A stretch of 64,000 bases of DNA from Candidatus Doudnabacteria bacterium. Its GTDB lineage: Bacteria; Patescibacteriota; Doudnabacteria; UBA920. The first letter of the stretch is position 1; every line of letters starts with the position of its first letter. Under the pieces are notes generated by a model. It was not told the origin of the DNA, did not search any database, and saw only the letters and a list, made by a program, of their open reading frames with translations. Below, piece by piece: positions 3,602 through 61,989 of the stretch. The stretch is from positions 840,717-904,716 of the forward strand of contig CAVYGQ010000001.1 of NCBI GenBank assembly GCA_963768175.1, in the 5' to 3' direction. Position numbers and translations under genes: made by a program.

Positions 3602-3672
3602 AAATAAGTAATGTAGCGCGCCGATTTATCGGCAACTTGAGACAGCCCATAAATGGGCATGCTACGCTGAGA

Positions 3673-11377: not shown

Positions 11378-12154
11378 CTATTGGTGTTTCAAAAACGGTT
11401 TTAATATTGGCGCGTATAAATCTTTTTTCGGCGGAATAACCAATTTGTGATATAAATCCTTTTTGGTAAACTTAACAAATTTCGCCCCTCTTAGCACCAC
11501 CACCGGCGTTTGCTCGCCGCCTTCGCCCATTATCAGCGCTCCCAAGTCCGCCAGCGTGTCCACCAAATTGCGCTGGGTGTATTTTAATTTGCGTTTAAAA
11601 ATATCTTTTTGTCCGCGGTAATCAAACAGTGGCTTTAACCCCCAAAAGCCGATGCTTACCCCTTGCGTTCCCCATCTTAGCGGCGTGGTGCGGCTGTCCA
11701 CGGCCACGGCCGCCAGTTTTTTTGTGCCAAATTTTGTTTGGTATCTTTTGACAATTTGTTTAAGTAATAAATTAACATTCTTCGGCCAAAGAATAAAATA
11801 ACCATTGCCGTTGCTTTCATCTATGCCGGCCGAAGGTATAAGCGTGTAGTCTTTAATGGTCAAAATAATTTCCGAATCGCCAATCATGTAAGCCGGCAAG
11901 CTAAAATCGGCTTCTTTTTTTACAAGCTGGTGTTTTTGGTTGTAGCGTGCCGATTTATCCGCCGTCGCTGAAGCTTTGGCGGACAAGTCGGCCTTCTCGA
12001 TTTTCACGCATCTGCCCTGATGAATCGCCAAAATCTTGGAAGCAATCAACAAAACATCGCCTTCTTTAAGCTTAGGCAGGCGTTTGTCCAGCTCTTGCAA
12101 AATGTCGTCCTTTGGCGGCAGGAACTTGCGGGTTTTTATGGGAATGAATTGCAT
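11378..12154 (-). CDS. CofE-like gamma-glutamyl ligase family protein (F420-0:gamma-glutamyl ligase / folate-type)
   Basis: 258 aa. MQFIPIKTRKFLPPKDDIL...GDVLLIASKILAIHQGR N-terminus resembles the CofE family. Contains an in-frame palindromic insert (SAKASATADKSARY). Confidence 0.6.
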   Translation of the reverse strand: MQFIPIKTRKFLPPKDDILQELDKRLPKLKEGDVLLIASKILAIHQGRCVKIEKADLSAKASATADKSARYNQKHQLVKKEADFSLPAYMIGDSEIILTIKDYTLIPSAGIDESNGNGYFILWPKNVNLLLKQIVKRYQTKFGTKKLAAVAVDSRTTPLRWGTQGVSIGFWGLKPLFDYRGQKDIFKRKLKYTQRNLVDTLADLGALIMGEGGEQTPVVVLRGAKFVKFTKKDLYHKLVIPPKKDLYAPILKPFLKHQ

Positions 12155-12795: not shown

Positions 12796-12872
12796 GGGCT
12801 AGTAGCTCAGCTGGTTAGAGCACGTCTCTTATAAGGACGGGGTCGATGGTCCGAATCCATCCTAGCCCACCA
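12796..12872 (+). tRNA. tRNA-Ile (anticodon UAU), CCA encoded
   Basis: Hand-folded cloverleaf: GGGCTAG/CTAGCCC acceptor, anticodon stem CGTCT/GGACG, loop CTTATAA. T loop is TCCGAAT (C at position 55). Confidence 0.85.
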
Positions 12873-21904: not shown

Positions 21905-22459
21905 TTAGAGTATCTGATGATTTTTTGACAAACTTAAACCATGCGATAACAACCAGGCCTCAACCTCTTTAGCTATTTTTTCGCTCATCCAATAACCCCT
22001 GGAAAGAGCAGCAATATCGGTTTTGGTAAGATCTTCAATAGTTTGAATGTTTGATCGTTTTGCCGTGGTATAAAAAGAGTTCGTGGCTCTAGTTCTTGAA
22101 AGCTTAATTATTGTCACTGGTTGTTTTAACAATTCTTGCTTAATATGTATCTCATTTTCTGCTATACGTTCTGCTTCCTTGTCTAATAAAGGTTTAAGTT
22201 TCCTAATCTCCGGATTAGTTTTTTCGTTTCGAGAAAGATCGCGAATAGGTTTTTCAATTTCAGCCATGGTTTCAGCTGTAATTGGATCTTCCACTTGGTT
22301 TATTCTTCTCTCTATTTCTTCGGAGCGGCGTTGAGTATTTTCAGGATTCACGAAATACCCTTTCTTATTATCATTCCCGCGAAAGCGGAAATTAGATTCC
22401 CGATCAGCTTTGGAATGACATAATGATAATAAATTATGGAATAAACCTAAAATTCTCAA
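21905..22459 (-). CDS. Hypothetical protein with RpoA C-terminal-domain-like helix-hairpin-helix
   Basis: C-terminus IKLSRTRATNSFYTTAKRSNIQTIEDLTKTDIAALSRG...IAKEVEAWLLSHGLSL resembles the alpha-CTD HhH. The start is uncertain. The annotated start overlaps the hss stop by 26 nt, and an internal ATG at 22267 is possible. Confidence 0.45.
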   Translation of the reverse strand: MRILGLFHNLLSLCHSKADRESNFRFRGNDNKKGYFVNPENTQRRSEEIERRINQVEDPITAETMAEIEKPIRDLSRNEKTNPEIRKLKPLLDKEAERIAENEIHIKQELLKQPVTIIKLSRTRATNSFYTTAKRSNIQTIEDLTKTDIAALSRGYWMSEKIAKEVEAWLLSHGLSLSKNHQIL

Positions 22460-23924
22460 ACTGCCAAACGTCCGCGGCCGGTTTGCTGGCCGGGTTTTCT
22501 TTGAAGTAGATTTTACGATTCTTTAGGGGCGTCCAGTCAGACGGCGTGGAAATAAAGTCGCCGAGATAAGGTTTTGCAATATCCAGCACAAAATCGTGCG
22601 GCAAGTCGTCAGGCAGGCAAATACCTTTTTTCGGATTTTCAAACATCCATAGTACGGCGGCAATTACGCCTAGCGCGACCTGTAAAGTGGTGGCATTTTG
22701 GCCAGGTGCCAGCCTCCGGGCTTCCTGTATGCTTAAATCGCTCCCTGTCCACCAAGAATTATACCGATGCCCCATCAGTAGCGCGCCTAAAATGTCCGCC
22801 CCGGAAGTAATCTCATCTTCCAAAATTCTTATCTTGGACTGCATTTCGTAATTCCTGCCGCGAAGTTCGCATAAAGAAGATAGTGTTTCGTGGCACGGCA
22901 TATACGCGTAATGCACTGTCGGGCGGTAAACTGCCCTATCTCCATCCCAAACTGTTAACCTGTCGGATAACCCAAATGCTTCGCCGTGGCGAATGACCAT
23001 GCCCACAATTTCTTCGTTGGGAATCCATGACCTTACCCAGGTATTAATTCCCATTTGGGAGAGCATAATCTGATTTTTTGGCCCGTAAGGCGGAATATTA
23101 GCCAAGTCCGGTAGCCTTTGTTCGTGTGTGCCCCAACCCATCTCGGCCGGCGCGGTTCCTTCTTCCCGCAAGCCTTCCACGCTCCAGGTTCCTACAAATT
23201 CATCAACTTCTTTTGGGCGATTGGTAATTTGCGTGTCGCGCTCGCTGCAGTGGATTACTTTGATTCCCAATTTTTGTCCGAGCAAATTGAATTTGAGGTT
23301 TTTAATATAATTTTCCAGTTCTTCCCTGTCTTTGCCAGCCACTTTTTTATCTGCGATTGTTTTATTGCCGATATCAATCAATCCTTGTTTGACAAAATGG
23401 GAGATCAAACCGGGGTTTGCGCCATGGTCCACGACTGCCGTAGTGGCGTCTTTCCAGTCTTTGGACATGTCGTGCAGTTTCATTTGGCGCCAGTAAAGCG
23501 ATTTTTCAAATGGGCTGTCAGTAAATAATCCCTTAATGGAATCCCAGATTTCAACCGAAGTATTTACATACAAAACATTATGGTCGTGGCACCAGCCGAT
23601 AATATCATTAGCACCAATATTCCATGCCAAATCTATAATCAGGCCGCCCTTGTCTGTGTATTTGGCCAACTCCGGGCCTAGGTTTTCCGGCGTAATCCTG
23701 TTGCGTACAAATTTGATGCCCTTGTCCGTGAATTTTTTTAAAGCCGCTGCTTTGTCTTCAAAATCCATTACCGTGACGTTTTTTGGGTCAACCTCAATTT
23801 TTTCCAGCAGAATCGGCAGGGTGCACTGCGACACCGCGCCATAACCGATAATCAAAATTTTGCGGTCAAACTTTTTTTTTCCGCCGGAGGCGGATCCGCC
23901 TTTAGCGGACATACGTTTTTCCAT
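22434..23924 (-). CDS. hss: Homospermidine synthase-like (saccharopine dehydrogenase family) enzyme
   Basis: 496 aa. KILIIGYGAVSQCTLPILLEKI resembles the bacterial HSS Rossmann N-terminus. The N-terminus carries the AKGGSASGG palindromic insert. Confidence 0.7.
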   Translation of the reverse strand: MEKRMSAKGGSASGGKKKFDRKILIIGYGAVSQCTLPILLEKIEVDPKNVTVMDFEDKAAALKKFTDKGIKFVRNRITPENLGPELAKYTDKGGLIIDLAWNIGANDIIGWCHDHNVLYVNTSVEIWDSIKGLFTDSPFEKSLYWRQMKLHDMSKDWKDATTAVVDHGANPGLISHFVKQGLIDIGNKTIADKKVAGKDREELENYIKNLKFNLLGQKLGIKVIHCSERDTQITNRPKEVDEFVGTWSVEGLREEGTAPAEMGWGTHEQRLPDLANIPPYGPKNQIMLSQMGINTWVRSWIPNEEIVGMVIRHGEAFGLSDRLTVWDGDRAVYRPTVHYAYMPCHETLSSLCELRGRNYEMQSKIRILEDEITSGADILGALLMGHRYNSWWTGSDLSIQEARRLAPGQNATTLQVALGVIAAVLWMFENPKKGICLPDDLPHDFVLDIAKPYLGDFISTPSDWTPLKNRKIYFKENPASKPAADVWQFENFRFIP

Positions 23925-24244: not shown

Positions 24245-24388
24245 CTTCTTCGCTAAAGCTACGAAGTGCGAGCAACTTAGTTGGTATGCTCATTTTAATA
24301 GTTAACTGTAAATTTTAGAAGCGAAGAAGTGCCCTACGTAGCCTTGGCGAAGTAGGGCAGAAAACGGCTATATTCGGTGTCCTTATGT

Positions 24389-32440: not shown

Positions 32441-32550
32441 GACGTCATTCCGAGCGCCTGCAATATCGCGCGAGGAATCTCTTATTGGCAGTTCGTTATT
32501 TAAGAGATCCTTCACCCTTCGGATGCACTCGGGGTTCAGGATGACGCCGC
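32441..32550. repeat. Palindromic MITE/RPE-like element, intergenic copy 1
   Basis: GACGTCATTCCGAG...GAGGAATCTC...AGAGATCCTTCACCCTTCGGATGCACTCGGGGTTCAGGATGACGCC. Terminal inverted repeats GTCAT..ATGAC. Same family as 43990-44075, 54178-54277 and 57344-57451. Confidence 0.8.
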
Positions 32551-32569
32551 TAATTTGGATGTTTGAGCC

Positions 32570-35205: not shown

Positions 35206-35691
35206 TTATTTTTCCTCGTGTATTTTACGTATAACTTCGTCTATATGCTGCACATATCTCGGGCTAGTGTCTAGATGGAAGCTTATTCGGGGAATGACTT
35301 TGGTGGCAAAGTGCTTGTTAACTTCGCCCTGGAGGTCGTAAATGTTTTTTCCCAAAAATGTTAAGATTTTATAGTCCAAAGATAGAGCAGTCTGAGATTT
35401 TTTATCAGCCTGCGACAAACTTTTTTTCCCTCTCCCTTCTTGCCCGCCGTAGCCTTGGCGAAGGCGGGTGGGAGAGGGTGCCCCAAGCCCGTCTTGGGGC
35501 GGGTGAGGGTCTGGGTTAAAAATAGAAATCCAAATTTTGGCGTACTTCATATCTTTGCTGGTTTCCACTTTGGTTATGGTCACCAGGCCTTTTTGCCAAT
35601 CCAAAAATTTATGCAAAACCGGCCCCAATTCGTGCTGGATTAAGGAGTTTACCTTAGCTATGCGGTTGGTGTCTTTTTTTACCGGCTTCAT
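35206..35691 (-). CDS. rbfA: Ribosome-binding factor A with a roughly 45-aa in-frame palindromic insert
   Basis: RIAKVNSLIQHELGPVL...ITKVETSKDMKYAKIWIS ... FHLD...HIDEVI are RbfA motifs. The inserted PDPHPPQDGLGAPSPTRLRQGYGGQEGRGKK is encoded by hairpins at 35428-35499. Confidence 0.8.
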   Translation of the reverse strand: MKPVKKDTNRIAKVNSLIQHELGPVLHKFLDWQKGLVTITKVETSKDMKYAKIWISIFNPDPHPPQDGLGAPSPTRLRQGYGGQEGRGKKSLSQADKKSQTALSLDYKILTFLGKNIYDLQGEVNKHFATKVIPRISFHLDTSPRYVQHIDEVIRKIHEEK

Positions 35692-43989: not shown

Positions 43990-44075
43990 GGCGTCATCCT
44001 GAGCGTAGCGAAGGATCTCATTAAAGAAAGAGATTCTTCACCCTTCGGATGCTACTTCAGGTTCAGAATGACGCC
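43990..44075. repeat. Palindromic MITE/RPE-like element, intergenic copy 2
   Basis: GGCGTCATCCTGAGCGTAGCGAAGGATCTC...AGAGATTCTTCACCCTTCGGATGCTACTTCAGGTTCAGAATGACGCC. Confidence 0.8.
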
Positions 44076-44094
44076 TTAGGAAAGAAAATATTAT

Positions 44095-45648
44095 ATGCAA
44101 AACCTTATAAAGGATCAGCAGAAAATCGGCCAGTTTATAGCCGAAGTCCGTGAGCTTAAAGGCTTTACCCAAAGCCAGTTTGCCAAAAGCTTAAAAACCA
44201 GCCAGTCAGCCGTAGCCAGGATGGAAAGCGGCCAGCAAAACTTAACTACAGAGATGCTGGCTAAGATTAGCGCAGTTTTGAACCATGAAATTATTACGTT
44301 GGCCGACAAGTCGGTAAATTTTAAAATAGAAGGCGGGCGGAAACTTTCGGGAAGGGTCGCGGTTAATACTTCCAAGAATGCCGCGGTGGCGCTGTTGTGC
44401 GCTTCTTTGCTTAATGAAGGTAAAACTATTTTTAAGAATGTGCCTAAAATAGAGGAAGTCTACCGGGTAATTGAAGTTTTGGTCAGTCTTGGCGTCTCGG
44501 TAAAATGGCAGGGCGCGGATGTGGAAATTTTGCCGGGCAAAAAAATTACCATAAATAAAATAGACAAAGAAGCCGCGGTTAAAACCAGAAGCGTTCTTAT
44601 GCTGCTTGGGCCTTTGGCTCATATTCTTCCCGCTTTTAACCTGCCTTTGGCCGGCGGCTGCAAACTGGGCGAACGGACCGTGAGGCCGCATTTGTTTGCT
44701 TTGGAAAAGCTTGGAGTTAAAATTCAGACCCATCATGACCATTACGCCGTAAGCTCGGCTAAAGCTCCCGCCAAAGGCGGATCCGCCTCCGGCGGAAAAA
44801 CCGCGGAGGTAGTGCTTTACGAAATGGGTGACACAGTGACGGAAAACACGCTTATGGCCGCGGCAAAAATAAACGGCGTGACCACCATCAAGCTGGCCTC
44901 TTCCAATTACATGGTGCAGGATTTATGTCATTTTTTGCAAAGTTTGGGCGTAAAAATTGAAGGCGTGGGTACCTCCACCTTAAAAGTGCATGGCAAACCG
45001 CACATTAACCAGCGTGTGGTCTTTTATTTAAGCGAAGACCCCATAGAAGCCATGCTGTTTTTGTCTTTGGCTGTCACCACAAATTCTTCCATAACCGTTG
45101 AGCGCTGCCCCATAGACTTTTTGGAGCTGGAACTGTTGAAATTGGAAAAGATGGGGTTTAAGTACCGGATTATTAAGCGTTATAAAAGCCATAACGGTAT
45201 TACCAATTTGGCAGATATTAAGACTTTCCCGTCTAAATTAATCGCGCTGGAAGAAAAAATCCACCCGTTGACGTCCTCGGCCGGAATTAATATAGATAAC
45301 CTGCCGTTTTTTGTGCCCATTGCCACCCAGGCCAAAGGCACCACGCTGATTCACGACTGGGTTTACGAAAATCGCGCTATTTACTATTTGGAATTAAATA
45401 AGCTGCGGGCCAATATAATTTTGGCCGACGCCCACCGCGTTTACATAGACGGCCCGACCGAACTTAAAGCAGGCGAAGTCATTTGTCCCCCTGCCCTGCG
45501 CCCGGCCGCGATAATTCTAATTGCGATGTTAGCCGCCAAAGGCACCTCTATTCTCCGCAACGTTTATTCCATAAACCGCGGCTATGAGAATTTGGTGCAG
45601 CGATTACAGAAGCTCGGAGCCAAGATCGAAATGATACATGGCATGTAA
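44095..45648 (+). CDS. murA: UDP-N-acetylglucosamine 1-carboxyvinyltransferase with N-terminal XRE-type HTH domain
   Basis: 517 aa. Residues 1-70, IGQFIAEVRELKGFTQSQFAKSLKTSQSAVARMESGQQNLTTEMLAKISAVL, form a Cro/C1 HTH. The rest is MurA (KLSGRVAVNTSKNAAVALLCASLL, LAGGCKLGERTVRPH with the active-site Cys retained). In-frame AKGGSASGG insert. Confidence 0.85.
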   Translation: MQNLIKDQQKIGQFIAEVRELKGFTQSQFAKSLKTSQSAVARMESGQQNLTTEMLAKISAVLNHEIITLADKSVNFKIEGGRKLSGRVAVNTSKNAAVALLCASLLNEGKTIFKNVPKIEEVYRVIEVLVSLGVSVKWQGADVEILPGKKITINKIDKEAAVKTRSVLMLLGPLAHILPAFNLPLAGGCKLGERTVRPHLFALEKLGVKIQTHHDHYAVSSAKAPAKGGSASGGKTAEVVLYEMGDTVTENTLMAAAKINGVTTIKLASSNYMVQDLCHFLQSLGVKIEGVGTSTLKVHGKPHINQRVVFYLSEDPIEAMLFLSLAVTTNSSITVERCPIDFLELELLKLEKMGFKYRIIKRYKSHNGITNLADIKTFPSKLIALEEKIHPLTSSAGINIDNLPFFVPIATQAKGTTLIHDWVYENRAIYYLELNKLRANIILADAHRVYIDGPTELKAGEVICPPALRPAAIILIAMLAAKGTSILRNVYSINRGYENLVQRLQKLGAKIEMIHGM

Positions 45649-45713: not shown

Positions 45714-48209
45714 ATGGCGGAAACAAACAACAATTTGGGTTTATCATCAGCCGAAGCCGCTAGCAGATTAAGGCAGTACGGCTATAACGAAATTGCGGAA
45801 AGCAAAAGGCTATCCGGGCTTTTGGCTTTTTTGTTAAGGTTCCGCAATCCGCTGGTGCTGATTTTGGTCTTTGCGGCTACGATATCAGCTGTAACCGGGG
45901 ATCCCGTCAGTGCGCTGATTATCATCAGTATTGTACTGCTGTCCGTTATCTTAGATTTTTTTAATACCTACAAATCCCAAAAAGCCGCGGAAGAGCTGAT
46001 AGAAAAAGTGGAAATTACAGCCGAGGTATTGAGAGGCGGCATAGTGACTCCCCTGCCGCTGCGCTTGATTGTGCCCGGAGACGTGGTGGAACTTGAGGCC
46101 GGAGACGTAATTCCCGCAGACGGCAAAATTTTAAGCGCCAAAGATTTATTTTTGAACGAATCTTCGCTAACCGGCGAATCTTTTCCCGCGGAAAAGCAGG
46201 AAGGCTTGCCTATTTTTTTGGGAACCAACGTGGTTACCGGCACTGGCCGGATGCTGGTGGAAGTTACGGGTAAAAAAACCAAGTTCAGCAAAATCGCGGA
46301 AAGTCTGGAAGCGCCGGAAAGGCCTACGGATTTTGACCGCAGCATAAAAGATTTTAGCTACTTAATTATGAAGATAACTTTTGTCTTGGTTATCTTTATT
46401 TTTTTGGTTAACGCCATACTCAAAGGCAGCACTTATATTTTGGAGTTGTTTTTGTTTGCCGCGGCCTTGGCCGTGGGCTTGACGCCGGAGCTTTTGCCCA
46501 TGATTATTACGCTTAATTTATCCAAGGGCTCTTTGGCCATGTCCAAGCACGGCGTAATTGTAAAAAAACTATCGGCCATCCAAAACTTTGGCGCTATGGA
46601 TGTATTGTGCACCGATAAAACCGGCACGTTGACGGAAGACAGGATTGAACTGGTCAAGTACGTGGACGCCGAGGGCAAGCCGGATGAAAACATTTTTAAG
46701 TACGCTTACCTTTCCAGCAGTTTCCGCAGCGGCTTTAAGAATCCGCTGGATGTGGCTGTAAAAAATTTCAAGATGTTTGATATTGGCGGCAAATCCGCCT
46801 TCGCTGAAGCTTCGGCGGATGACTCGCTATCAAATATATTAATGGGAGTCAAAAAAATAGACGAAATCCCCTTTGATTACCGGCGCAAGCGCGATTCCAT
46901 TATCGTGAAAACTTCTCAAGGCTATGAGCTTATTTCCAAAGGCGCGCCTGAAGAAATGTTTGAGACCTGCAGTTTTTATAGCCAGATGGGTAAAAAACTC
47001 ACCCCTACTATAGCCAAAAAATTGGAAAAAGAATATCAGGCTTTAAGTGCCGACGGCTTTAGGGTTTTGGCTGTGGCCTGCAAGACGCTTCCGGAAAAAA
47101 CGGCATACGAAAAAGAAGACGAAAGGGATTTGGTTATATTGGGCTTTATTGCTTTTTTGGATCCGCCCAAAAAGAGCGTGACCGAAACCCTGCGGACTTT
47201 GGAAAATTATGGCATCGCCATAAAAGTTATTACCGGCGATAACGAAATTATTACCAAAAAAATCGCTCAGGAAATTAATTTGCCCGTTTTGGGCAGTTTG
47301 ACCGGGGCAGAGATAGAAAAATTGACCGATCGGCAGCTAGCAATAGATGCGGAGAAAACTACAGTTTTTGCGCGCGTTACGCCGGAACAAAAAAAGCGCA
47401 TTATTTTGGCTTTGCAAAAAAATAAACACGTAGTCGGGTTTATGGGCGATGGTATAAATGACGCGCCGTCGCTTAAGACCGCGGACGTGGGCATTTCGGT
47501 TAACAACGCGGTGGACGTGGCCAAGGAATCGGCCGATTTAATTTTATTGCACAAGAGTTTAAAGGAGCTGGCTTTAGGCGTTATCCAGGGCCGCAAAACT
47601 TTTGCCAATACTTTAAAGTATTTAATGATGGGTTTGAGCTCAAATTTCGGCAATATGTTTTCCATGGCCGGAGCATCCATGTTTTTTCCGTTTTTGCCCA
47701 TGCTGCCGGCCCAGATTTTGCTAAATAATCTGCTGTATGACGGCTCGCAGTTTGTCATTCCGCTGGACAATGTGGATGAGCAGGACATTGCCAGGCCACG
47801 GCAAATGAAGATCCATTTTTTGCGCAGATTTATGGTGGTTTTTGGCATTTTAAGTTCGGTGTTTGATTTTGTGACGTTTTTAGTGTTAACTTTTGTCTTC
47901 CATTATACCAACCACTACTTCCAGACCGGCTGGTTTATTACCTCTTTTGCCACGCAAATTTTAGTGGTATTTGTTATCCGCACCAAGCAGGTGCCGTTTT
48001 TCAAAAGCAAGCCGGCTAAGTCCTTAGTTATTTCCGTGTTTAGTTTTTTGGCTTTAGCCCTGCTTTTGGCCTTAGGCCCGATAAAAAATATCTTCGGCTT
48101 TGCCCCGCTTTCGCTGGCCATGGTTTTAAGCGCTTTCCTTATTACCCTGCTCTATTTAATCTGTATTGAGTTCGCCAAAAGCAAATTTTACCAATATGTT
48201 TCGGAATAA
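45714..48209 (+). CDS. mgtA: Magnesium-translocating P-type ATPase
   Basis: 831 aa. CTDKTGTLT, MGDGINDAPSLKTADVGISV, and an MgtA-like N-terminus (GLSSAEAASRLRQYGYNE). Confidence 0.85.
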   Translation: MAETNNNLGLSSAEAASRLRQYGYNEIAESKRLSGLLAFLLRFRNPLVLILVFAATISAVTGDPVSALIIISIVLLSVILDFFNTYKSQKAAEELIEKVEITAEVLRGGIVTPLPLRLIVPGDVVELEAGDVIPADGKILSAKDLFLNESSLTGESFPAEKQEGLPIFLGTNVVTGTGRMLVEVTGKKTKFSKIAESLEAPERPTDFDRSIKDFSYLIMKITFVLVIFIFLVNAILKGSTYILELFLFAAALAVGLTPELLPMIITLNLSKGSLAMSKHGVIVKKLSAIQNFGAMDVLCTDKTGTLTEDRIELVKYVDAEGKPDENIFKYAYLSSSFRSGFKNPLDVAVKNFKMFDIGGKSAFAEASADDSLSNILMGVKKIDEIPFDYRRKRDSIIVKTSQGYELISKGAPEEMFETCSFYSQMGKKLTPTIAKKLEKEYQALSADGFRVLAVACKTLPEKTAYEKEDERDLVILGFIAFLDPPKKSVTETLRTLENYGIAIKVITGDNEIITKKIAQEINLPVLGSLTGAEIEKLTDRQLAIDAEKTTVFARVTPEQKKRIILALQKNKHVVGFMGDGINDAPSLKTADVGISVNNAVDVAKESADLILLHKSLKELALGVIQGRKTFANTLKYLMMGLSSNFGNMFSMAGASMFFPFLPMLPAQILLNNLLYDGSQFVIPLDNVDEQDIARPRQMKIHFLRRFMVVFGILSSVFDFVTFLVLTFVFHYTNHYFQTGWFITSFATQILVVFVIRTKQVPFFKSKPAKSLVISVFSFLALALLLALGPIKNIFGFAPLSLAMVLSAFLITLLYLICIEFAKSKFYQYVSE

Positions 48210-51357: not shown

Positions 51358-51511
51358 CCCCGTTAGAAGTCCAGCATATATCTTTTTAGCGGGTACTTTT
51401 AAGGTGTCCGACTTCTAACGGGGTTGATAAAATAAGCTAAATCTAATAAAATATCTAAGCAACATTTTGTTGATCGTTTAAGGTTTGCCCTACGTAGCCT
51501 TGGCGAAGTAA

Positions 51512-51585
51512 GGGCCTGTAGTATAATGGTAATACGGATCCATGGCATGGATTAGTCGGGGGTCCGATTCCCCCCAGGTCCACCA
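51512..51585 (+). tRNA. tRNA-Ala (GGC), CCA encoded
   Basis: GGGCCTG/CAGGTCC acceptor with G3:U70, anticodon arm GATCC ATGGCAT GGATT. T arm is GGGGG TCCGATT CCCCC (C at position 55). Confidence 0.85.
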
Positions 51586-52819: not shown

Positions 52820-54403
52820 ATGGACTTGTTTGTTCCAAAATTTATCCAATACCAATTATACCTGCTCCAGCTGGAAAATTATGAGCTGGGAAGGTATTGG
52901 AAATTGCTTATAAAAAAGGGAGTTTTCCCTAAAAAAAGCCAACCTTTGCGCAAAGAGCTGGTCTGGACCGCTAAAGCTCGGGCGTTAATGCTTATGGCTG
53001 TGGCCCTGCATGGTTTGGTGGTCGTTTTGGTTGGGCTTATGGTTTTAACTTTAAAGCCGGGCATAGATAACTTTTTTACCACAATAATTTTGGCGGTATT
53101 AATTTTGTTGCCGTTTTATTTTGTTTTTTTCAGTCTGGCTTTGTTAATCCTTAAGCCTTTGGACACTCTGGTAAAACAAAGCCTTGTGGCTAAAGCCAAA
53201 ACCAAGCTGGCTGGATTGCCTGATGTCAAGATAATCGGCGTTGCCGGCAGTTACGGCAAAACTACAATGAAGGAAGTGTTGAGGGCAGTGCTAAGTGCTA
53301 AGTTCAAAGTGCTAAGTACGCCGGAGAGCATAAACACGCCGGTGGGGATTGCCAGATGGATTATAAATAAAATAACGGACGAAACCCAAATTCTGATTGT
53401 AGAAATGGGGGAGCATTATGAGAAAGACGTTAAAGAAATTTGCGATATAGCAAAACCCGACATCGCGGTGGTTACCGGCATTAACGAATCCCACTTGGAG
53501 CGGATGAAAAAAATGGATACGGTTATTGCCACAATTTTTGAAATCGTGAGTAACGCCCAGCCCGGCGCGGCTATTGTGCTAAACGGCGATGATCGCAGGG
53601 TTATGGAGAATTATAAAAAATTTGTCTGGCCAGACCATCGGCTGGAATTTTTTACAAAAAATCCCGGCAGTGAAAAGTGTAAAGTGAAAAGTGCAAAGTT
53701 TAACACAGACAAGCTGTGTTGGAATTTAGAGATTGATGATCTTGGCTCGGTAGAACTGGATTTACTTGGGGAATACGCGTTGGGCGACGTTGACGCGGCC
53801 GTGAAAATTGCCAAAAGTTTGGGTATGAGCAATGAGCAAATTATCGCGGGGATCAAAAATATCAAGCCCGTGGAGCACAGGCTCCAGCCGATAAAGTCTG
53901 CCACGAATGTTTTGGTAATAGACGACAGTTACAACGGCAATTCCGACGGAGTAGTGGAAGCCATAAAAGTTTTGTCGCGCTTTTCCGCCAAAGGCGGATC
54001 CGCCTCCGGCGGAGAAGGCCGCCGGAAGATTTATATCACTCCCGGGCTGGTGGAAATAGGCAAAAGTTCCGCCGATATTCATCGCAGTATTGGCAAACAG
54101 CTGGCGGACGTTGCGGATGTGGTTATTTTGATAAAAAATAGCGCGACGGGGTTTATTGAAGAGGGAATCCTCTTAGGGCGTCATTCTGACCCTGAGCGGA
54201 GCGAAGGGGAAGAATCTCAAACTAAGGATAAAGAGATCCTTCGTCCCTCGGATGCACTCGGGGCTCAGGATGACGCCGCTGGTAAGAGACCAAGAATTAT
54301 CTGGTTTAATTCCGCCTTGGAAGCGTACGCGGGGCTAAAAGACATTTTAAAACCCGGGGATGTAATTTTGTTTCAGAACGATTGGGGAGACCAGTATTTG
54401 TAA
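52820..54403 (+). CDS. murF: Mur ligase, MurF-like (UDP-MurNAc-tripeptide--D-Ala-D-Ala ligase) with N-terminal membrane segment and in-frame repeat inserts
   Basis: 527 aa. GVAGSYGKTTMKE P-loop and VIDDSYNGN. The first 115 aa or so contain 3 hydrophobic helices. Inserts at 53985-54012 (AKGGSASGG) and 54178-54277 (RPE-like). Confidence 0.8.
   Translation: MDLFVPKFIQYQLYLLQLENYELGRYWKLLIKKGVFPKKSQPLRKELVWTAKARALMLMAVALHGLVVVLVGLMVLTLKPGIDNFFTTIILAVLILLPFYFVFFSLALLILKPLDTLVKQSLVAKAKTKLAGLPDVKIIGVAGSYGKTTMKEVLRAVLSAKFKVLSTPESINTPVGIARWIINKITDETQILIVEMGEHYEKDVKEICDIAKPDIAVVTGINESHLERMKKMDTVIATIFEIVSNAQPGAAIVLNGDDRRVMENYKKFVWPDHRLEFFTKNPGSEKCKVKSAKFNTDKLCWNLEIDDLGSVELDLLGEYALGDVDAAVKIAKSLGMSNEQIIAGIKNIKPVEHRLQPIKSATNVLVIDDSYNGNSDGVVEAIKVLSRFSAKGGSASGGEGRRKIYITPGLVEIGKSSADIHRSIGKQLADVADVVILIKNSATGFIEEGILLGRHSDPERSEGEESQTKDKEILRPSDALGAQDDAAGKRPRIIWFNSALEAYAGLKDILKPGDVILFQNDWGDQYL
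54178..54277. repeat. Palindromic MITE/RPE-like element, in-frame inside murF (copy 3)
   Basis: GGCGTCATTCTGACCCTGAGCGGAGCGAAGGGGAAGAATCTCAAAC...AGAGATCCTTCGTCCCTCGGATGCACTCGGGGCTCAGGATGACGCC. Translated as GRHSDPERSEGEESQTKDKEILRPSDALGAQDDAA. Confidence 0.8.
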
Positions 54404-54442: not shown

Positions 54443-55588
54443 ATGGGGACAATCGGAAAAATTTTTAATAAGATAGTATCACCAAAAATTAACTATCAAC
54501 CGCTTATAGAAGTGAGGATTTTTAAAGATGCCTTGCTGCATAATTTACACGTTTTCCAAGAAAAATATCCGAGCCTTGAGTTTGCCCCAGTGATAAAAAG
54601 CAACGCTTACGGACACGGTATGGTACAGGTGGCAAAAATTTTTGACAGCAAACCCAAAGCTTTTTTTATGGTGGACTCATTTTATGAGGCTTTGGTGTTA
54701 AGGCGCGCCGGAATTAAATCTAAAATTTTAATGCTGGGTTTTAACCGGATTGAGCAATTGATTAACCCCAAATTAAAAAATTGTTCCTCGGCGATTATTG
54801 ATTTCTCCACTTTGCAGGAAGTGGTGGCAAAATTAAAAAAGCCGGCGATCTTTCATCTCAAGATTGATACGGGTATGCACCGGCAGGGACTGTGGGGGGA
54901 AGAAGTAAATAAGGCAATTGCGTTAATCAAGTCTAACCCAAACTTTAATTTGGAGGGCTTATGCAGCCATTTGGCGGATGCCGACGGGGCTGGGCAGGAT
55001 TTTACCAAACAGCAGATTAGACTGTGGAATCAAGTCGTGGAAAAATTCAAACAAAACTTTCCCTCCATTAAATATTTCCATTTAGCCAATACCGCCGGGA
55101 CTTTTTATACCAACGAAATTACGGCCAACGTGGCGCGCATCGGCATCGGGCTGTATGGGTTAAATAATTCACAGTTTGAAAAGTTGGACTTAAAACCGGC
55201 TTTGGAAATGGCCTCTATTGTCACTTCCGTAAAAACTATTCCGGCTGGGGAGAAAATCGGTTACAATATAACTTATGAGGCGCCGAAAGAAACAAAAATC
55301 GCCACCGTACCGGCGGGATTCAACGAAGGCGTGGACCGCAGGCTTTCAAATAAAGGATTTTACCAAATTAAGGGGCAAAACTGTCCTTTGCGGGGCAAGG
55401 TGAGCATGAACATAAGCAGCGTGGAAGTAACCAGTGTCCCTGGAGTTAAAGTGGGGGATGAGGTGGTAATTATAAGCCGAAATCCGAGCGATAAAAATTC
55501 GGTGGAAAATATTGCCAAAATGTGCGACACGGTACATTACGAAATTCTGGTTCATATACCTTCTATATTAAGAAGAATAATAGTGTAG
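54443..55588 (+). CDS. alr: Alanine racemase
   Basis: 381 aa. PVIKSNAYGHG carries the PLP lysine, with the typical C-terminal beta domain. Confidence 0.9.
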   Translation: MGTIGKIFNKIVSPKINYQPLIEVRIFKDALLHNLHVFQEKYPSLEFAPVIKSNAYGHGMVQVAKIFDSKPKAFFMVDSFYEALVLRRAGIKSKILMLGFNRIEQLINPKLKNCSSAIIDFSTLQEVVAKLKKPAIFHLKIDTGMHRQGLWGEEVNKAIALIKSNPNFNLEGLCSHLADADGAGQDFTKQQIRLWNQVVEKFKQNFPSIKYFHLANTAGTFYTNEITANVARIGIGLYGLNNSQFEKLDLKPALEMASIVTSVKTIPAGEKIGYNITYEAPKETKIATVPAGFNEGVDRRLSNKGFYQIKGQNCPLRGKVSMNISSVEVTSVPGVKVGDEVVIISRNPSDKNSVENIAKMCDTVHYEILVHIPSILRRIIV

Positions 55589-55653
55589 CGCGCCGATTTA
55601 TCGGCATCCTAAGATAGCCCATAAATGGGCACGCTACAGATGGAAAAAATTTT

Positions 55654-61935: not shown

Positions 61936-61989
61936 AGAGTAGTGAATCCGCCTTCGCTAAAGCTACGGCGGACAAGTAGGATAAAACAC

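Follow-up and report, generated by a model that had tools for sequence, protein, structure and literature searches.

How do the genes for MurF, MurA and a homospermidine-synthase-like (HSS-like) protein come to share an almost identical run of 28 nucleotides, read in the same frame in all three, and is this run a linker made for the protein or a piece of DNA with a history of its own? The three genes lie in the window, by which we mean the whole 64-kb stretch of DNA analysed here, from a Candidatus Doudnabacteria genome (Table 1). Combining the comparisons described below, we suggest that the 28-mer is likely the core of a 30-bp dispersed double-hairpin repeat and that this repeat is selfish or neutral DNA rather than a designed linker. 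This grading applies to the explanation as a whole, in which the copying step is inferred.

Results

The shared sequence is a pair of abutting hairpins

An initial annotation made from the sequence alone had reported a 28-mer identical in murA and murF and with one substitution in hss, in each case read as (A)KGGSASGG. This held, and the unit could be extended to 30 nt. The 28-mer CCGCCAAAGGCGGATCCGCCTCCGGCGG occurs exactly at 44768-44795 (+) and 53985-54012 (+) and with one mismatch at 23881-23908 (-); 100 dinucleotide-preserving shuffles gave no match to it. Identity runs one base further at either side, and the true unit is therefore 30 nt long. The mismatch in the third copy, GCC>GCT (C>T), is a synonymous change in the first stem that replaces a G-C pair by a G-T pair. 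The three copies, each of them single, are 9-21 kb apart; their reading frames in the three host ORFs are FSAKGGSASGGE, APAKGGSASGGK and MSAKGGSASGGK, with the consensus peptide (S/P)AKGGSASGG.

The claim of a nested palindrome with two mini-hairpins held as well: the unit consists of two abutting 15-nt hairpins, TCCGCC AAA GGCGGA / TCCGCC TCC GGCGGA, of the general form TCCGCC-NNN-GGCGGA with a 6-bp stem and a 3-nt loop. What did not hold is a suggested link to BamHI-like (GGATCC) restriction-modification, which is unsupported: GGATCC is merely the junction between the two units (GGCGGA|TCCGCC), and no such gene is present among the 63 window ORFs scanned. With 70% G+C, vs ~44% across the window, the element has no stop in any frame and, read in its main frame from either strand, gives two Ser-Ala-x-Gly-Gly repeats.

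Two folds are available to this sequence, twin hairpins as ssDNA (-12.8 kcal/mol, z = -3.5) and one long single hairpin as the minimum free energy fold of the RNA (-22.4 kcal/mol). Across the family of copies described below, compensated stem pairs number 19 under twin-hairpin pairing vs 1 under the long-hairpin alternative, and on this count the long hairpin is rejected as the maintained fold. Each 15-nt unit is kept as a hairpin, with compensated changes in the stem, while the loops change fast and can invert. The ends TCCGCC and GGCGGA are found in 231 exact copies, and the family contains ~50 loop combinations. The MurF orthologue variants SAKGG/SAGGG and SASGG/SAFGG correspond to reverse-complemented loops, and in the orthologous ddl copies of two loci, L247 and L122, 24/24 stem bases are identical and the loops are related by inversion of the whole element plus one change. 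G-T pairs account for 18 of the 48 one-sided stem changes; transitions alone are estimated to give about this share, and RNA-level selection for G-U wobble is unsupported.

Table 1. Positions in the window of the element copies, their parts and their host genes
Feature	Position	Strand	Description
murF (UDP-MurNAc-tripeptide--D-Ala-D-Ala ligase)	52820..54403	+	Long ORF, Pfam Mur ligase; named MurF by database sources
Element copy 1	53984..54013	+	TCCGCCAAAGGCGGA|TCCGCCTCCGGCGGA in murF, read SAKGGSASGG, residues 389-398
Hairpin unit 1 of copy 1	53984..53998	+	6-bp stem TCCGCC/GGCGGA, loop AAA; ssDNA fold and covariation
Hairpin unit 2 of copy 1	53999..54013	+	Stem as unit 1, loop TCC; ssDNA fold and covariation
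Left flank of copy 1	53981..53983	+	TTT (Phe codon), part of preferred site TTY|RAA
Right flank of copy 1	54014-54016	+	GAA
murA, with N-terminal HTH domain	44095..45648	+	Long ORF, Pfam HTH+EPSP_synthase/MurA; named MurA by database sources
Element copy 2	44767..44796	+	CCCGCC...GGCGGA in murA, read PAKGGSASGG; first base C gives Pro
Saccharopine-dehydrogenase-family, HSS-like gene	22434..23924	-	Long ORF, Pfam
Element copy 3	23880..23909	-	In HSS-like gene immediately after ATG (23912-23910), read SAKGGSASGG

The element is a clean insertion between TY and RA

Relative to orthologues, the element is a clean 10-codon (30-nt) insertion. The ten residues are missing from 116 of 120 MurF orthologues, including the one at 75% identity, from MurA orthologues at 90% identity and from the homologues of known structure (MurF, PDB 3zl8; MurA, PDB 5ujs). 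HSS homologues have short N-termini that start 3-10 residues before the Rossmann motif, without the inserted segment. At the nucleotide level, the murF genes of L247 and L122 align with 94% identity and a single gap of exactly 30 nt, the empty sites read TTT|AAA in murF (locus L120) and CTG|AAG in murA (locus L245), and empty/filled pairs show a plain 30-nt insertion. In an AlphaFold2 model of MurF, residues 390-397 and 456-488 are the only ones with pLDDT below 50, and the model places the insert in a disordered surface loop. The HSS-like gene adjoins two Orn/Arg decarboxylase genes.

The flanks of the copies define the insertion site. Among 122 copies the preferred bases are T at -3 (75%), Y at -2 (78%), R at +2 (93%) and A at +3 (89%), and a logo of 233 copies gives TY at the left in 73% and RA at the right in 73%. 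The left and right preferences are independent of each other, and copies outside ORFs give the same figures. Direct flank repeats of 1-8 nt, i.e. target-site duplications, were found in 0/122 copies. The 30 bp enter as a single block between TY and RA (~TTY|RAA) without target duplication. Element-like 6-9-mers are no commoner in the 40 nt next to a copy than at a distance of 100-600 nt (241 copies), and therefore no longer homology guides insertion. On the same count we reject proto-site seeding, in which the element would be created locally de novo. This idea had been suggested by the murF and murA downstream flanks (CCGCCGGA and CCGCGGAGG), which are complementary to the element end.

The element is scattered over many phyla

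At least 119 genome loci contain the element, and a pattern with unconstrained loops matches at least 120 metagenome contigs. Both the copy numbers and the host range are minimum values, from scans whose sampling order is unknown. The hosts include CPR groups, Omnitrophota, Elusimicrobia, Ignavibacteria, Planctomycetota and others, in all >10 phyla, in which the element is scattered over hundreds of unrelated genes, AlaRS and DnaK among those beyond the Mur enzymes, as well as over non-coding DNA. Nearly all loci hold one copy, and the density is ~1 per 20 kb (3 in 64 kb of the window; 0-2 per 21-kb locus from relatives). Insertion sites differ between close relatives, as with the first murF site vs those in ddl, murA and hss. 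The MurF site is filled in four non-sister orthologues and the MurA site in two, a pattern explicable only by strong hot spots or by transfer through recombination, which the data do not tell apart.

Viral contigs, plasmids and E. coli are all but free of the element. IMG/VR, with 2.9 million viral contigs, contained zero exact and two loose matches, plasmids and E. coli had none, and cultured phages gave only partial matches at chance level; a phage or plasmid vector is rejected on these grounds. No longer element sharing the ends was found in 1.7 Mb of loci. At the gathering threshold, Rfam identified only tRNAs in the window and thus no known RNA family for the element. Full-text literature searches nowhere found the peptide or DNA motif named as a natural element; the strings matched only papers that, judged by titles and abstracts, deal with unrelated laboratory topics.

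An artefact of assembly, adapters or chimeras has to be considered, given that all matches come from MAGs or SAGs, that the element contains a BamHI site and that it resembles a synthetic GGS linker. This is all but excluded: the insertions are exactly 30 nt long, in frame and in essential genes; assemblies made independently in different studies, and one SAG, have the element at the same sites; diverged copies form a graded series with compensated stems; and orthologous copies differ in their loops.

Copies persist where they fall between codons

ORFs of >=120 aa contain 100 of 120 copies in one set and 96 of 123 in another. In these long ORFs, 83/100 and 79/96 copies are in phase 0 and read SAxGG-SAxGG, vs only 52% of the available TTY|RAA sites in the ORFs of the window (binomial P = 9e-10). 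Within genes, copies thus persist chiefly where they fall exactly between codons. The composition of the loops (TYN/NRA) is equal in phase-0 and remaining copies, and protein-level selection on the loop codons finds no clear support beyond avoidance of stops.

These data bear on the alternative that the shared peptide is a flexible Gly/Ser linker selected convergently at the protein level, without a common DNA origin. The peptide is indeed typical of flexible linkers and is placed in loops. Against this explanation, the identity is at the nucleotide level and includes synonymous positions, ~20% of copies are not in long ORFs at all and ~18% of the intragenic ones are in other frames, the hairpins covary, and the flank preference holds also for copies that are not in ORFs. 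We regard convergence as virtually ruled out.

No linked enzyme is found near the copies

By Pfam, none of the 63 window ORFs scanned is a transposase, restriction or modification gene, and those with a match all have housekeeping or ordinary cellular functions; the analysis covered no other part of the genome. All-against-all clustering of ORFs from the 8-20 kb around copies in ~240 neighbourhoods recovered no recurrent transposase-like family, only housekeeping families plus a small GIY-YIG family in five loci. A regular expression for GIY-YIG had no match in the window, a weak check that also missed the known GIY-YIG ORFs in L120-L122. No RAYT (Y1 transposase) gene was present among the 63 window ORFs or in the ~240 neighbourhoods; whole genomes were not covered.

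In one alternative, the element would be non-autonomous and moved in trans by an enzyme that recognises hairpins, similar to REP/REPIN-RAYT or IS200/IS605 systems, binding the two ssDNA hairpins and cutting and joining at their feet. In its favor, covariation supports a twin-hairpin ssDNA fold, target-site duplication is absent as for HUH/Y1 transposases, the element has sharp, constant ends and a stem sequence conserved over phyla, and its length falls among those of REPs (PMC3733652). Against it, (i) a GTAG or CGTC tag is absent, (ii) REPs are extragenic, but 75-80% of the copies here lie within genes, (iii) both flanks are independently constrained, whereas IS200/IS605-type targets are one-sided, (iv) neither a Y1 nor any other transposase lies in the window or the ~240 neighbourhoods, and (v) REP/RAYT pairs are lineage-specific, whereas the element occurs in >10 phyla. 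We consider this alternative unlikely.

Filled and empty alleles can be exchanged by recombination

In one pair of closely related genomes, a filled/empty difference lies inside a mosaic tract of ~300 nt that is 15-30% divergent vs ~1.5% elsewhere. Because the presence/absence difference sits in this tract, homologous recombination can carry a filled or an empty allele between lineages; this is shown for the one genome pair.

The same observation could be taken to support a DNA-level signal that does not transpose, i.e. an uptake or protein-binding palindrome whose filled alleles spread only by uptake and homologous recombination, as proposed for USS/DUS. Haemophilus USS show frame bias in coding DNA, and the frame bias found here is similar to that of uptake sequences. 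Copies are in conserved housekeeping genes and nearly absent from viral contigs and plasmids, and a 15-bp palindrome with a 3-bp spacer resembles a dimer binding site. On the other hand, the copies are 30-nt insertions and not products of point mutation, their density is far below the ~1 per kb of USS/DUS, and >10 phyla would require one common receptor specificity. Moreover, new sites differ among close relatives, and therefore new insertions must arise somehow. A pure DNA signal is in our judgment very unlikely.

Discussion

The initial annotation had argued that either a tiny element had spread or insertion was targeted, and this is supported by the orthologue comparison, the empty sites, the dispersal, the flank preference and the hairpin covariation; its exclusion of convergent linkers is supported by the nucleotide-level evidence. 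That the spread was recent holds only in part because the loops have diverged widely within the family.

As to how copies arise, we propose that a new copy is made from an existing one by template switching associated with replication or repair, in which the T-rich and A-rich flanks of 2-3 nt would serve as microhomology on entering and leaving. Template switching within the hairpins would afterwards homogenise the arms and flip the loops, and template switching between inverted-repeat arms is known to do both, homogenising the arms and inverting the spacer (PMC8604942, PMC8794818). A dedicated transposase would be unnecessary, which would agree with both the very wide range of hosts and the lack of a linked enzyme gene. 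Against this model, 2-3 nt of microhomology is very short for repeated ectopic switching, insertion is not guided by any longer homology, and the sharp constant ends and the one stem sequence across phyla could instead reflect sequence-specific recognition by a protein encoded elsewhere. The main alternative is accordingly a hairpin-specific enzyme that acts in trans from elsewhere in the genome. Granted that the element is real, we judge template switching marginally more doubtful than credible, and the copying is inferred, not observed.

A bolder reading is also possible. The 15-nt hairpin, usually paired as 30 bp, could be the smallest unit known in bacteria to propagate itself by insertion, spreading in essential genes of >10 phyla of uncultivated bacteria either without a dedicated enzyme, by template switching that the hairpins provoke and that uses 2-3 nt of microhomology, or by means of an unknown, horizontally shared hairpin-specific nuclease or recombinase with the palindromic target TTY|RAA. 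If so, conserved proteins would by either route have in the element a general source of new disordered loops.

Returning to the dispersed double-hairpin repeat as such, no smaller gene-invading repeat may so far have been described in bacteria. If our explanation is correct, 30 bp suffices for such a repeat across very distant bacteria, and essential enzymes (MurA, MurF, AlaRS, DnaK) have a route for acquiring disordered Gly/Ser loops. Being far smaller than RPEs, MITEs and REPINs, it would also reopen the question of transposase-free movement of palindromic micro-elements, which is unresolved for RPEs and mitochondrial GC clusters too. The family makes this question testable by its many filled/empty pairs, its clear TY|RA target and its structural signature of twin hairpins whose loops flip. 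Anyone annotating CPR and other MAGs or building trees from them should not take a shared SAKGGSASGG word for homology, and a hypervariable loop in a conserved protein can be the product of a repeat insertion. Finally, the element could help to trace recombination and gene flow among uncultivated lineages.

Among known repeat families, the nearest analogues of the element are the Rickettsia palindromic elements and the mitochondrial GC-cluster or double-hairpin elements. CRISPR repeats form regular arrays with unique spacers, whereas the copies here are single. MITEs are likewise small, non-autonomous dispersed repeats with inverted symmetry; however, they are ~50-500 bp long with IS-derived terminal inverted repeats and target-site duplications, whereas the element has 30 bp, no duplication and no parent IS that we could see. 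USS/DUS resemble it in being short, in their frequency in core genes, in their frame bias and in the spread of their alleles by recombination, but they are motifs ~10-30 nt long, originate by point mutation and are family-specific at ~1 per kb, whereas the element is inserted and crosses phyla at ~1 per 20 kb. REP/BIME/REPIN sequences (RAYT) are GC-rich imperfect palindromes of 20-40 nt that are often paired, form ssDNA hairpins and, like the element, lack target duplication; their extragenic position, lineage specificity and GTAG or CGTC tag (PMC3733652) are not shared by the element, and no RAYT gene was found in the stretches inspected.

Closer parallels exist in organelles. Mitochondrial GC clusters, the double-hairpin elements of Allomyces and the repetitive hairpin-forming elements of sponges are short GC-rich hairpins or double hairpins that are dispersed, sometimes within genes, in a more AT-rich genome; their units merge and shuffle, they are exchanged by homologous recombination of the flanks, and their mechanism is unknown (PMC4478555, PMC2800124). 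In contrast, the element resides in bacterial chromosomes, mostly within genes in phase 0, and has one stem sequence across phyla. Yeast GC42 has a putative AG target duplication (PMC4478555), whereas the element has none.

The Rickettsia palindromic elements (RPE) are ~100-150 bp long, encode peptides of 30-50 residues and are restricted to Rickettsia, in contrast to the 30 bp, 10 residues and >10 phyla of the element, which also differs in consisting of two 15-nt hairpins with a defined TY|RA site and has no sequence similarity to RPE. For neither is a transposase known, and both are palindromic repeats that lie in frame in unrelated housekeeping genes and are translated as an extra surface segment (PMC10969869).

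Insertion of the 30-nt element

The initial annotation had described a 28-mer in two exact copies and one with a single mismatch and had read it as a tiny spreading element or a targeted insertion; the copies and their coordinates were confirmed, and this main interpretation held, the finding being judged real. With <=3 mismatches allowed, the 28-mer had no matches in 100 dinucleotide-preserving shuffles. When the three window copies are aligned with their flanks, resemblance is lost no more than a few bases outside the motif. Long ORFs host 3/3 copies, which encode the peptides FSAKGGSASGGE, APAKGGSASGGK and MSAKGGSASGGK. A homospermidine-synthase-like (HSS-like) identity of the third host fits the two Orn/Arg decarboxylase genes that it adjoins. 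The window has ~44% G+C and 12 tRNAs, and the relatives of its MurF are named Candidatus Doudnabacteria.

Coordinates of the features (window positions unless another locus is named)
Feature	Locus	Position	Strand	Remark
28-mer CCGCCAAAGGCGGATCCGCCTCCGGCGG	murA	44768-44795	+	exact match
28-mer CCGCCAAAGGCGGATCCGCCTCCGGCGG	murF	53985-54012	+	exact match
28-mer CCGCCAAAGGCGGATCCGCCTCCGGCGG	HSS-like gene	23881-23908	-	one mismatch
MurF ORF	window	52820-54403	+	Mur ligase M and C domains; name from database sources
MurA ORF	window	44095-45648	+	HTH and EPSP_synthase; name from database sources
HSS-like ORF	window	22434-23924	-	saccharopine-dehydrogenase N and C domains
HTH_3 (XRE-type) DNA-binding domain	MurA N-terminus	44095-44300		fused to the enzyme
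tRNA-Ile, anticodon TAT	window	12796-12872		ARAGORN
Second palindromic insertion	murF	54171-54280		in frame; residues ~456-488
Further copies of its family	window	32502-32551; 44028-44077		both intergenic
ATCCGCC-TTCGCTGAAGCTTC-GGCGGA	window	11957-11990; 46793-46826; 61946-61979
57-nt repeat	window	3609-3665; 55581-55637		intergenic; 89% identical
TGCCCTAC-GTAGCCTTGGCGAA-GTAGGG	window	24330-24357; 35441-35468; 51486-51513		hairpin
GIY-YIG ORFs	L120	2181-2468		Doudnabacteria relatives
	L121	15636-15914
	L122	2413-2664
	L245	17167-17430
	L247	1524-1775; 6532-6816
(TCTCCC-NNN-GGGAGA)x2	L205	645; 1710; 4781; 7013		metagenome contig
Single CCCTCTCCC-AAA-GGGAGAGGG	L120; L122	9321; 13011		Doudnabacteria relatives
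Nested 30-mer	L001	1400-1429; 1808-1837		Elusimicrobia MAG

In an alignment of 120 MurF orthologues, the element stands out as a clean insertion of 10 residues following VLSRF that is missing from 116, the closest ones included (75% and 69% identity). With a slash marking the insertion point, the empty murF of a relative (L120) reads ...CGT TTT/AAA AAC CGC CGG..., and the filled window gene ...CGC TTT(30 nt)GAA GGC CGC CGG.... Similarly, exactly 10 residues are missing from MurA orthologues that share 90% identity, an empty site (L245) reading AAG CTG/AAG CCG. In the HSS-like gene the element directly follows ATG; its homologues, all at <=49% identity, start 3-10 residues ahead of the Rossmann motif. 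The solved structures of MurA (5ujs) and MurF (3zl8) are without the element segment, and in an AlphaFold2 model of the window MurF (mean pLDDT 84.9) just two segments fall below 50, namely the element (residues 390-397) and another, unrelated palindromic insert (residues 456-488). The sharpest pair is murF of two relatives, L247 and L122, which share 94% nucleotide identity and differ by a sole gap of exactly 30 nt, an element with the loops (AAA,TTT) at TTT/AAG. The 30 bp were inserted as a block.

Anatomy and folding

A further 120 occurrences were collected with a 23-nt core. Because T precedes the motif in 98% and A follows it in 99%, and because past these single bases the flanks are unrelated and similarity ends sharply, the unit is 30 nt long: TCCGCC-AAA-GGCGGA followed by TCCGCC-TCC-GGCGGA, i.e. 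two 15-nt hairpins, each with a 6-bp stem and a 3-nt loop, that span ten codons and are stop-free in 6/6 frames. GGATCC is merely the junction between the two units.

The element forms twin hairpins as single-stranded DNA (-12.8 kcal/mol, z = -3.5), and the minimum-energy fold of the RNA is a single long hairpin that contains an internal loop (-22.4 kcal/mol). Scored on the 48 copies that carry 1-4 stem mismatches, the twin-hairpin pairing yields 19 compensated, 18 G-T and 30 broken pairs, versus 1, 24 and 56, respectively, for the long hairpin, which is rejected as the maintained fold on its single compensated pair. Since covariation favors the twin pairing, it is the individual 15-nt hairpin that is maintained. 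Third positions of codons in one arm are paired with first positions of the partner codons, and pairing and phase-0 coding (the element lying exactly between codons) can jointly freeze the stem sequence. In the protein, the compensated variants found (PAxGG, STxGG) are conservative changes.

Target site and reading frame

Direct flank repeats were found in 0/122 copies, so that no target-site duplication is present. In the logo of these flanks, -3 is T (75%), -2 is Y (78%), +2 is R (93%) and +3 is A (89%); among 233 pooled copies, 73% have TY on the left and 73% RA on the right, and the two preferences are mutually independent. These frequencies are unchanged for copies outside long ORFs and, thus, the TY/RA preference is a property of the insertion process or of the copied unit and not of coding selection.

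In ORFs >=120 aa, 83/100 copies in one set and 79/96 in the other are in phase 0 and read SAxGG-SAxGG whichever strand codes. TTY/RAA sites in window ORFs lie in the element's phase in 52% and in phase 2 in 43% of cases, and the phase-0 excess over available sites is significant (binomial P = 9e-10). Equal use of all frames, one part of a refutation that the initial annotation had named, is not borne out. Given this excess, the readings PPKADPPPA and RRRRIRLWR are under-represented, as expected if such insertions are tolerated less well. The hosts are mainly conserved housekeeping genes (AlaRS, DnaK, IF-2, RpoD, TrmD, helicase, T9SS C-terminal domains), and several sites recur.

Family and distribution

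At least 119 genome stretches, all from metagenome-assembled or single-cell genomes, contain the exact 23-nt core. The hosts include many CPR groups, Omnitrophota, Elusimicrobia, Firestonebacteria, Ignavibacteria, Bacteroidota, Planctomycetota, Kiritimatiellae, Lentisphaerales, Chloroflexota, KSB1 (single-cell genome) and bins labelled Gammaproteobacteria. With fixed stems and free loops, at least 120 metagenome contigs match. The loops are highly variable, (AAA,TCC) accounting for merely 13/123, and whichever strand is read, the first is rich in purines (NRA) and the second in pyrimidines (TYN). Diverged copies carry 1, 2, 3 or 4 stem mismatches (25, 12, 5 and 6 copies, respectively), and single 15-nt units also occur. 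A second family, (TCTCCC-N3-GGGAGA)x2, indicates that the double-hairpin design is not tied to one stem sequence. The element is all but missing from 2.9 million viral contigs (no exact match, 2 with any loops), and neither 72,556 plasmids nor E. coli genomes contain it; cultured phages gave chance-level matches only.

Dynamics and recombination

Among MurF orthologues the element occupies two sites, in lineages that are not sisters and with variants whose loops are flipped (SAKGG/SAGGG and SASGG/SAFGG), and the nearest neighbors of every filled sequence are empty. The MurA site occupied in the window is also filled in L015 (75% identity), and >45 closer orthologues are empty. A ddl copy common to L247 and L122, missing from the window and L120, has 24 identical stem bases, and its loops, (AGA,TCC) versus (GAA,TCT), differ by whole-element inversion plus one substitution.

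A ~300-nt mosaic block (murF nt ~780-1080) encloses the filled/empty difference that separates L247 from L122; it is 15-30% divergent, the rest of murF being ~1.5% divergent; protein identity is 76% within the block versus 98% outside. This tract records homologous recombination between diverged Doudnabacteria lineages, and because the filled/empty difference lies in it, this one case shows that recombination can move either allele between lineages. Allele transfer by homologous recombination has been reported for yeast mitochondrial GC42 (PMC4478555).

Other repeats and neighboring features

The second murF insertion, unrelated to the 30-mer, has the sequence GTCATTCTGACC...GAGATCCTTCG...CTCAGGATGAC and reads HSDPERSEGEES...EILRPSDALGAQDD. 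Its loop is hypervariable among MurF orthologues, some of which carry no insert, and contains lineage-specific repeat-derived peptides, e.g. VIARSEATKQS..SLAMT and TTPSRQGGTPLLFQEG..GGVPRVAGGG. The repeat ATCCGCC-TTCGCTGAAGCTTC-GGCGGA has the TCCGCC/GGCGGA stem of the 30-mer around a 14-nt loop with AAGCTT and is possibly related to it; two copies are in frame, in an F420-ligase-like gene (SAKASATADKS) and a P-type ATPase (SAFAEASADDS). In the 57-nt repeat, an outer GTAGC...GCTAC stem encloses two inner hairpins, GCCGATTTATCGGC and GCCCATAAATGGGC, making another double-hairpin design, with a REP-like GTAG tag. The 35441 copy of the GTAGGG hairpin repeat, within an RbfA-like ORF, keeps its loop unchanged and has a stem in which all changes are compensated (CCCGCC/GGCGGG).

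In L001 the 30-mer is nested in another widespread palindromic repeat (GTCATTGCG / 30-mer / AGCGAAGCGAAGCAATCTC), twice and in opposite orientations, inside a 748-codon open frame; the stretch examined is largely stop-free repeats. Small stand-alone GIY-YIG nuclease ORFs (83-95 aa) lie near the murA/murF regions of Doudnabacteria relatives; their number and position vary among the loci fetched, no link to the element is established, and a Pfam scan of 63 ORFs found none in the window. The HTH_3-MurA fusion is kept in 120/120 orthologues retrieved. The TAT anticodon of the tRNA-Ile is uncommon in bacteria, in which AUA is usually read by a modified CAT tRNA.

Mechanism and relation to known elements

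Our data establish 30-bp block insertion without target duplication in a two-sided TY/RA context, maintenance of 15-nt hairpins, fast invertible loops, a phase-0 bias and one recombination-linked case. No transposase, RAYT or restriction-modification gene linked to the element was found in the window or in ~240 neighborhoods; a search of the genome for BamHI-like restriction-modification genes had been proposed as a check in the initial annotation. We favor copying from an existing element by replication- or repair-associated template switching, with a confidence that falls a little short of probable, the copying step being inferred; this model fits the absence of a target duplication, the two constrained flanks, the broad host range and the fact that no enzyme gene was found. 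Alternatively, a hairpin-specific enzyme encoded elsewhere could move the element. This main rival, weighed on the window and those neighborhoods rather than on whole genomes, is considered unlikely; its weaknesses are that the target is two-sided, the element is intragenic and the GTAG/CGTC tag is missing. Under template switching, the short T-rich and A-rich flanks would serve as microhomology on entry and exit, and switching within a hairpin would generate compensated stems and flipped loops; such intra-hairpin switching is documented to homogenize inverted-repeat arms and to invert spacers (PMC8604942, PMC8794818).

A search of the full-text literature found no paper on this motif as a natural element. 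In-frame palindromic selfish repeats are already known as a broader kind. The element is like Rickettsia palindromic elements in its in-frame insertion into housekeeping genes (PMC10969869) but differs from them in size and taxon, and it resembles mitochondrial GC clusters, double-hairpin elements and repetitive hairpin elements (PMC4478555, PMC2800124). It lacks the hallmarks of REP/REPIN sequences (tag, extragenic location), MITEs (target-site duplication, size), uptake sequences (density, taxon specificity) and CRISPR repeats (arrays). It belongs to a widespread, apparently undescribed family of gene-invading, in-frame 30-bp double-hairpin repeats, unusual in its tiny size, defined target and cross-phylum distribution.
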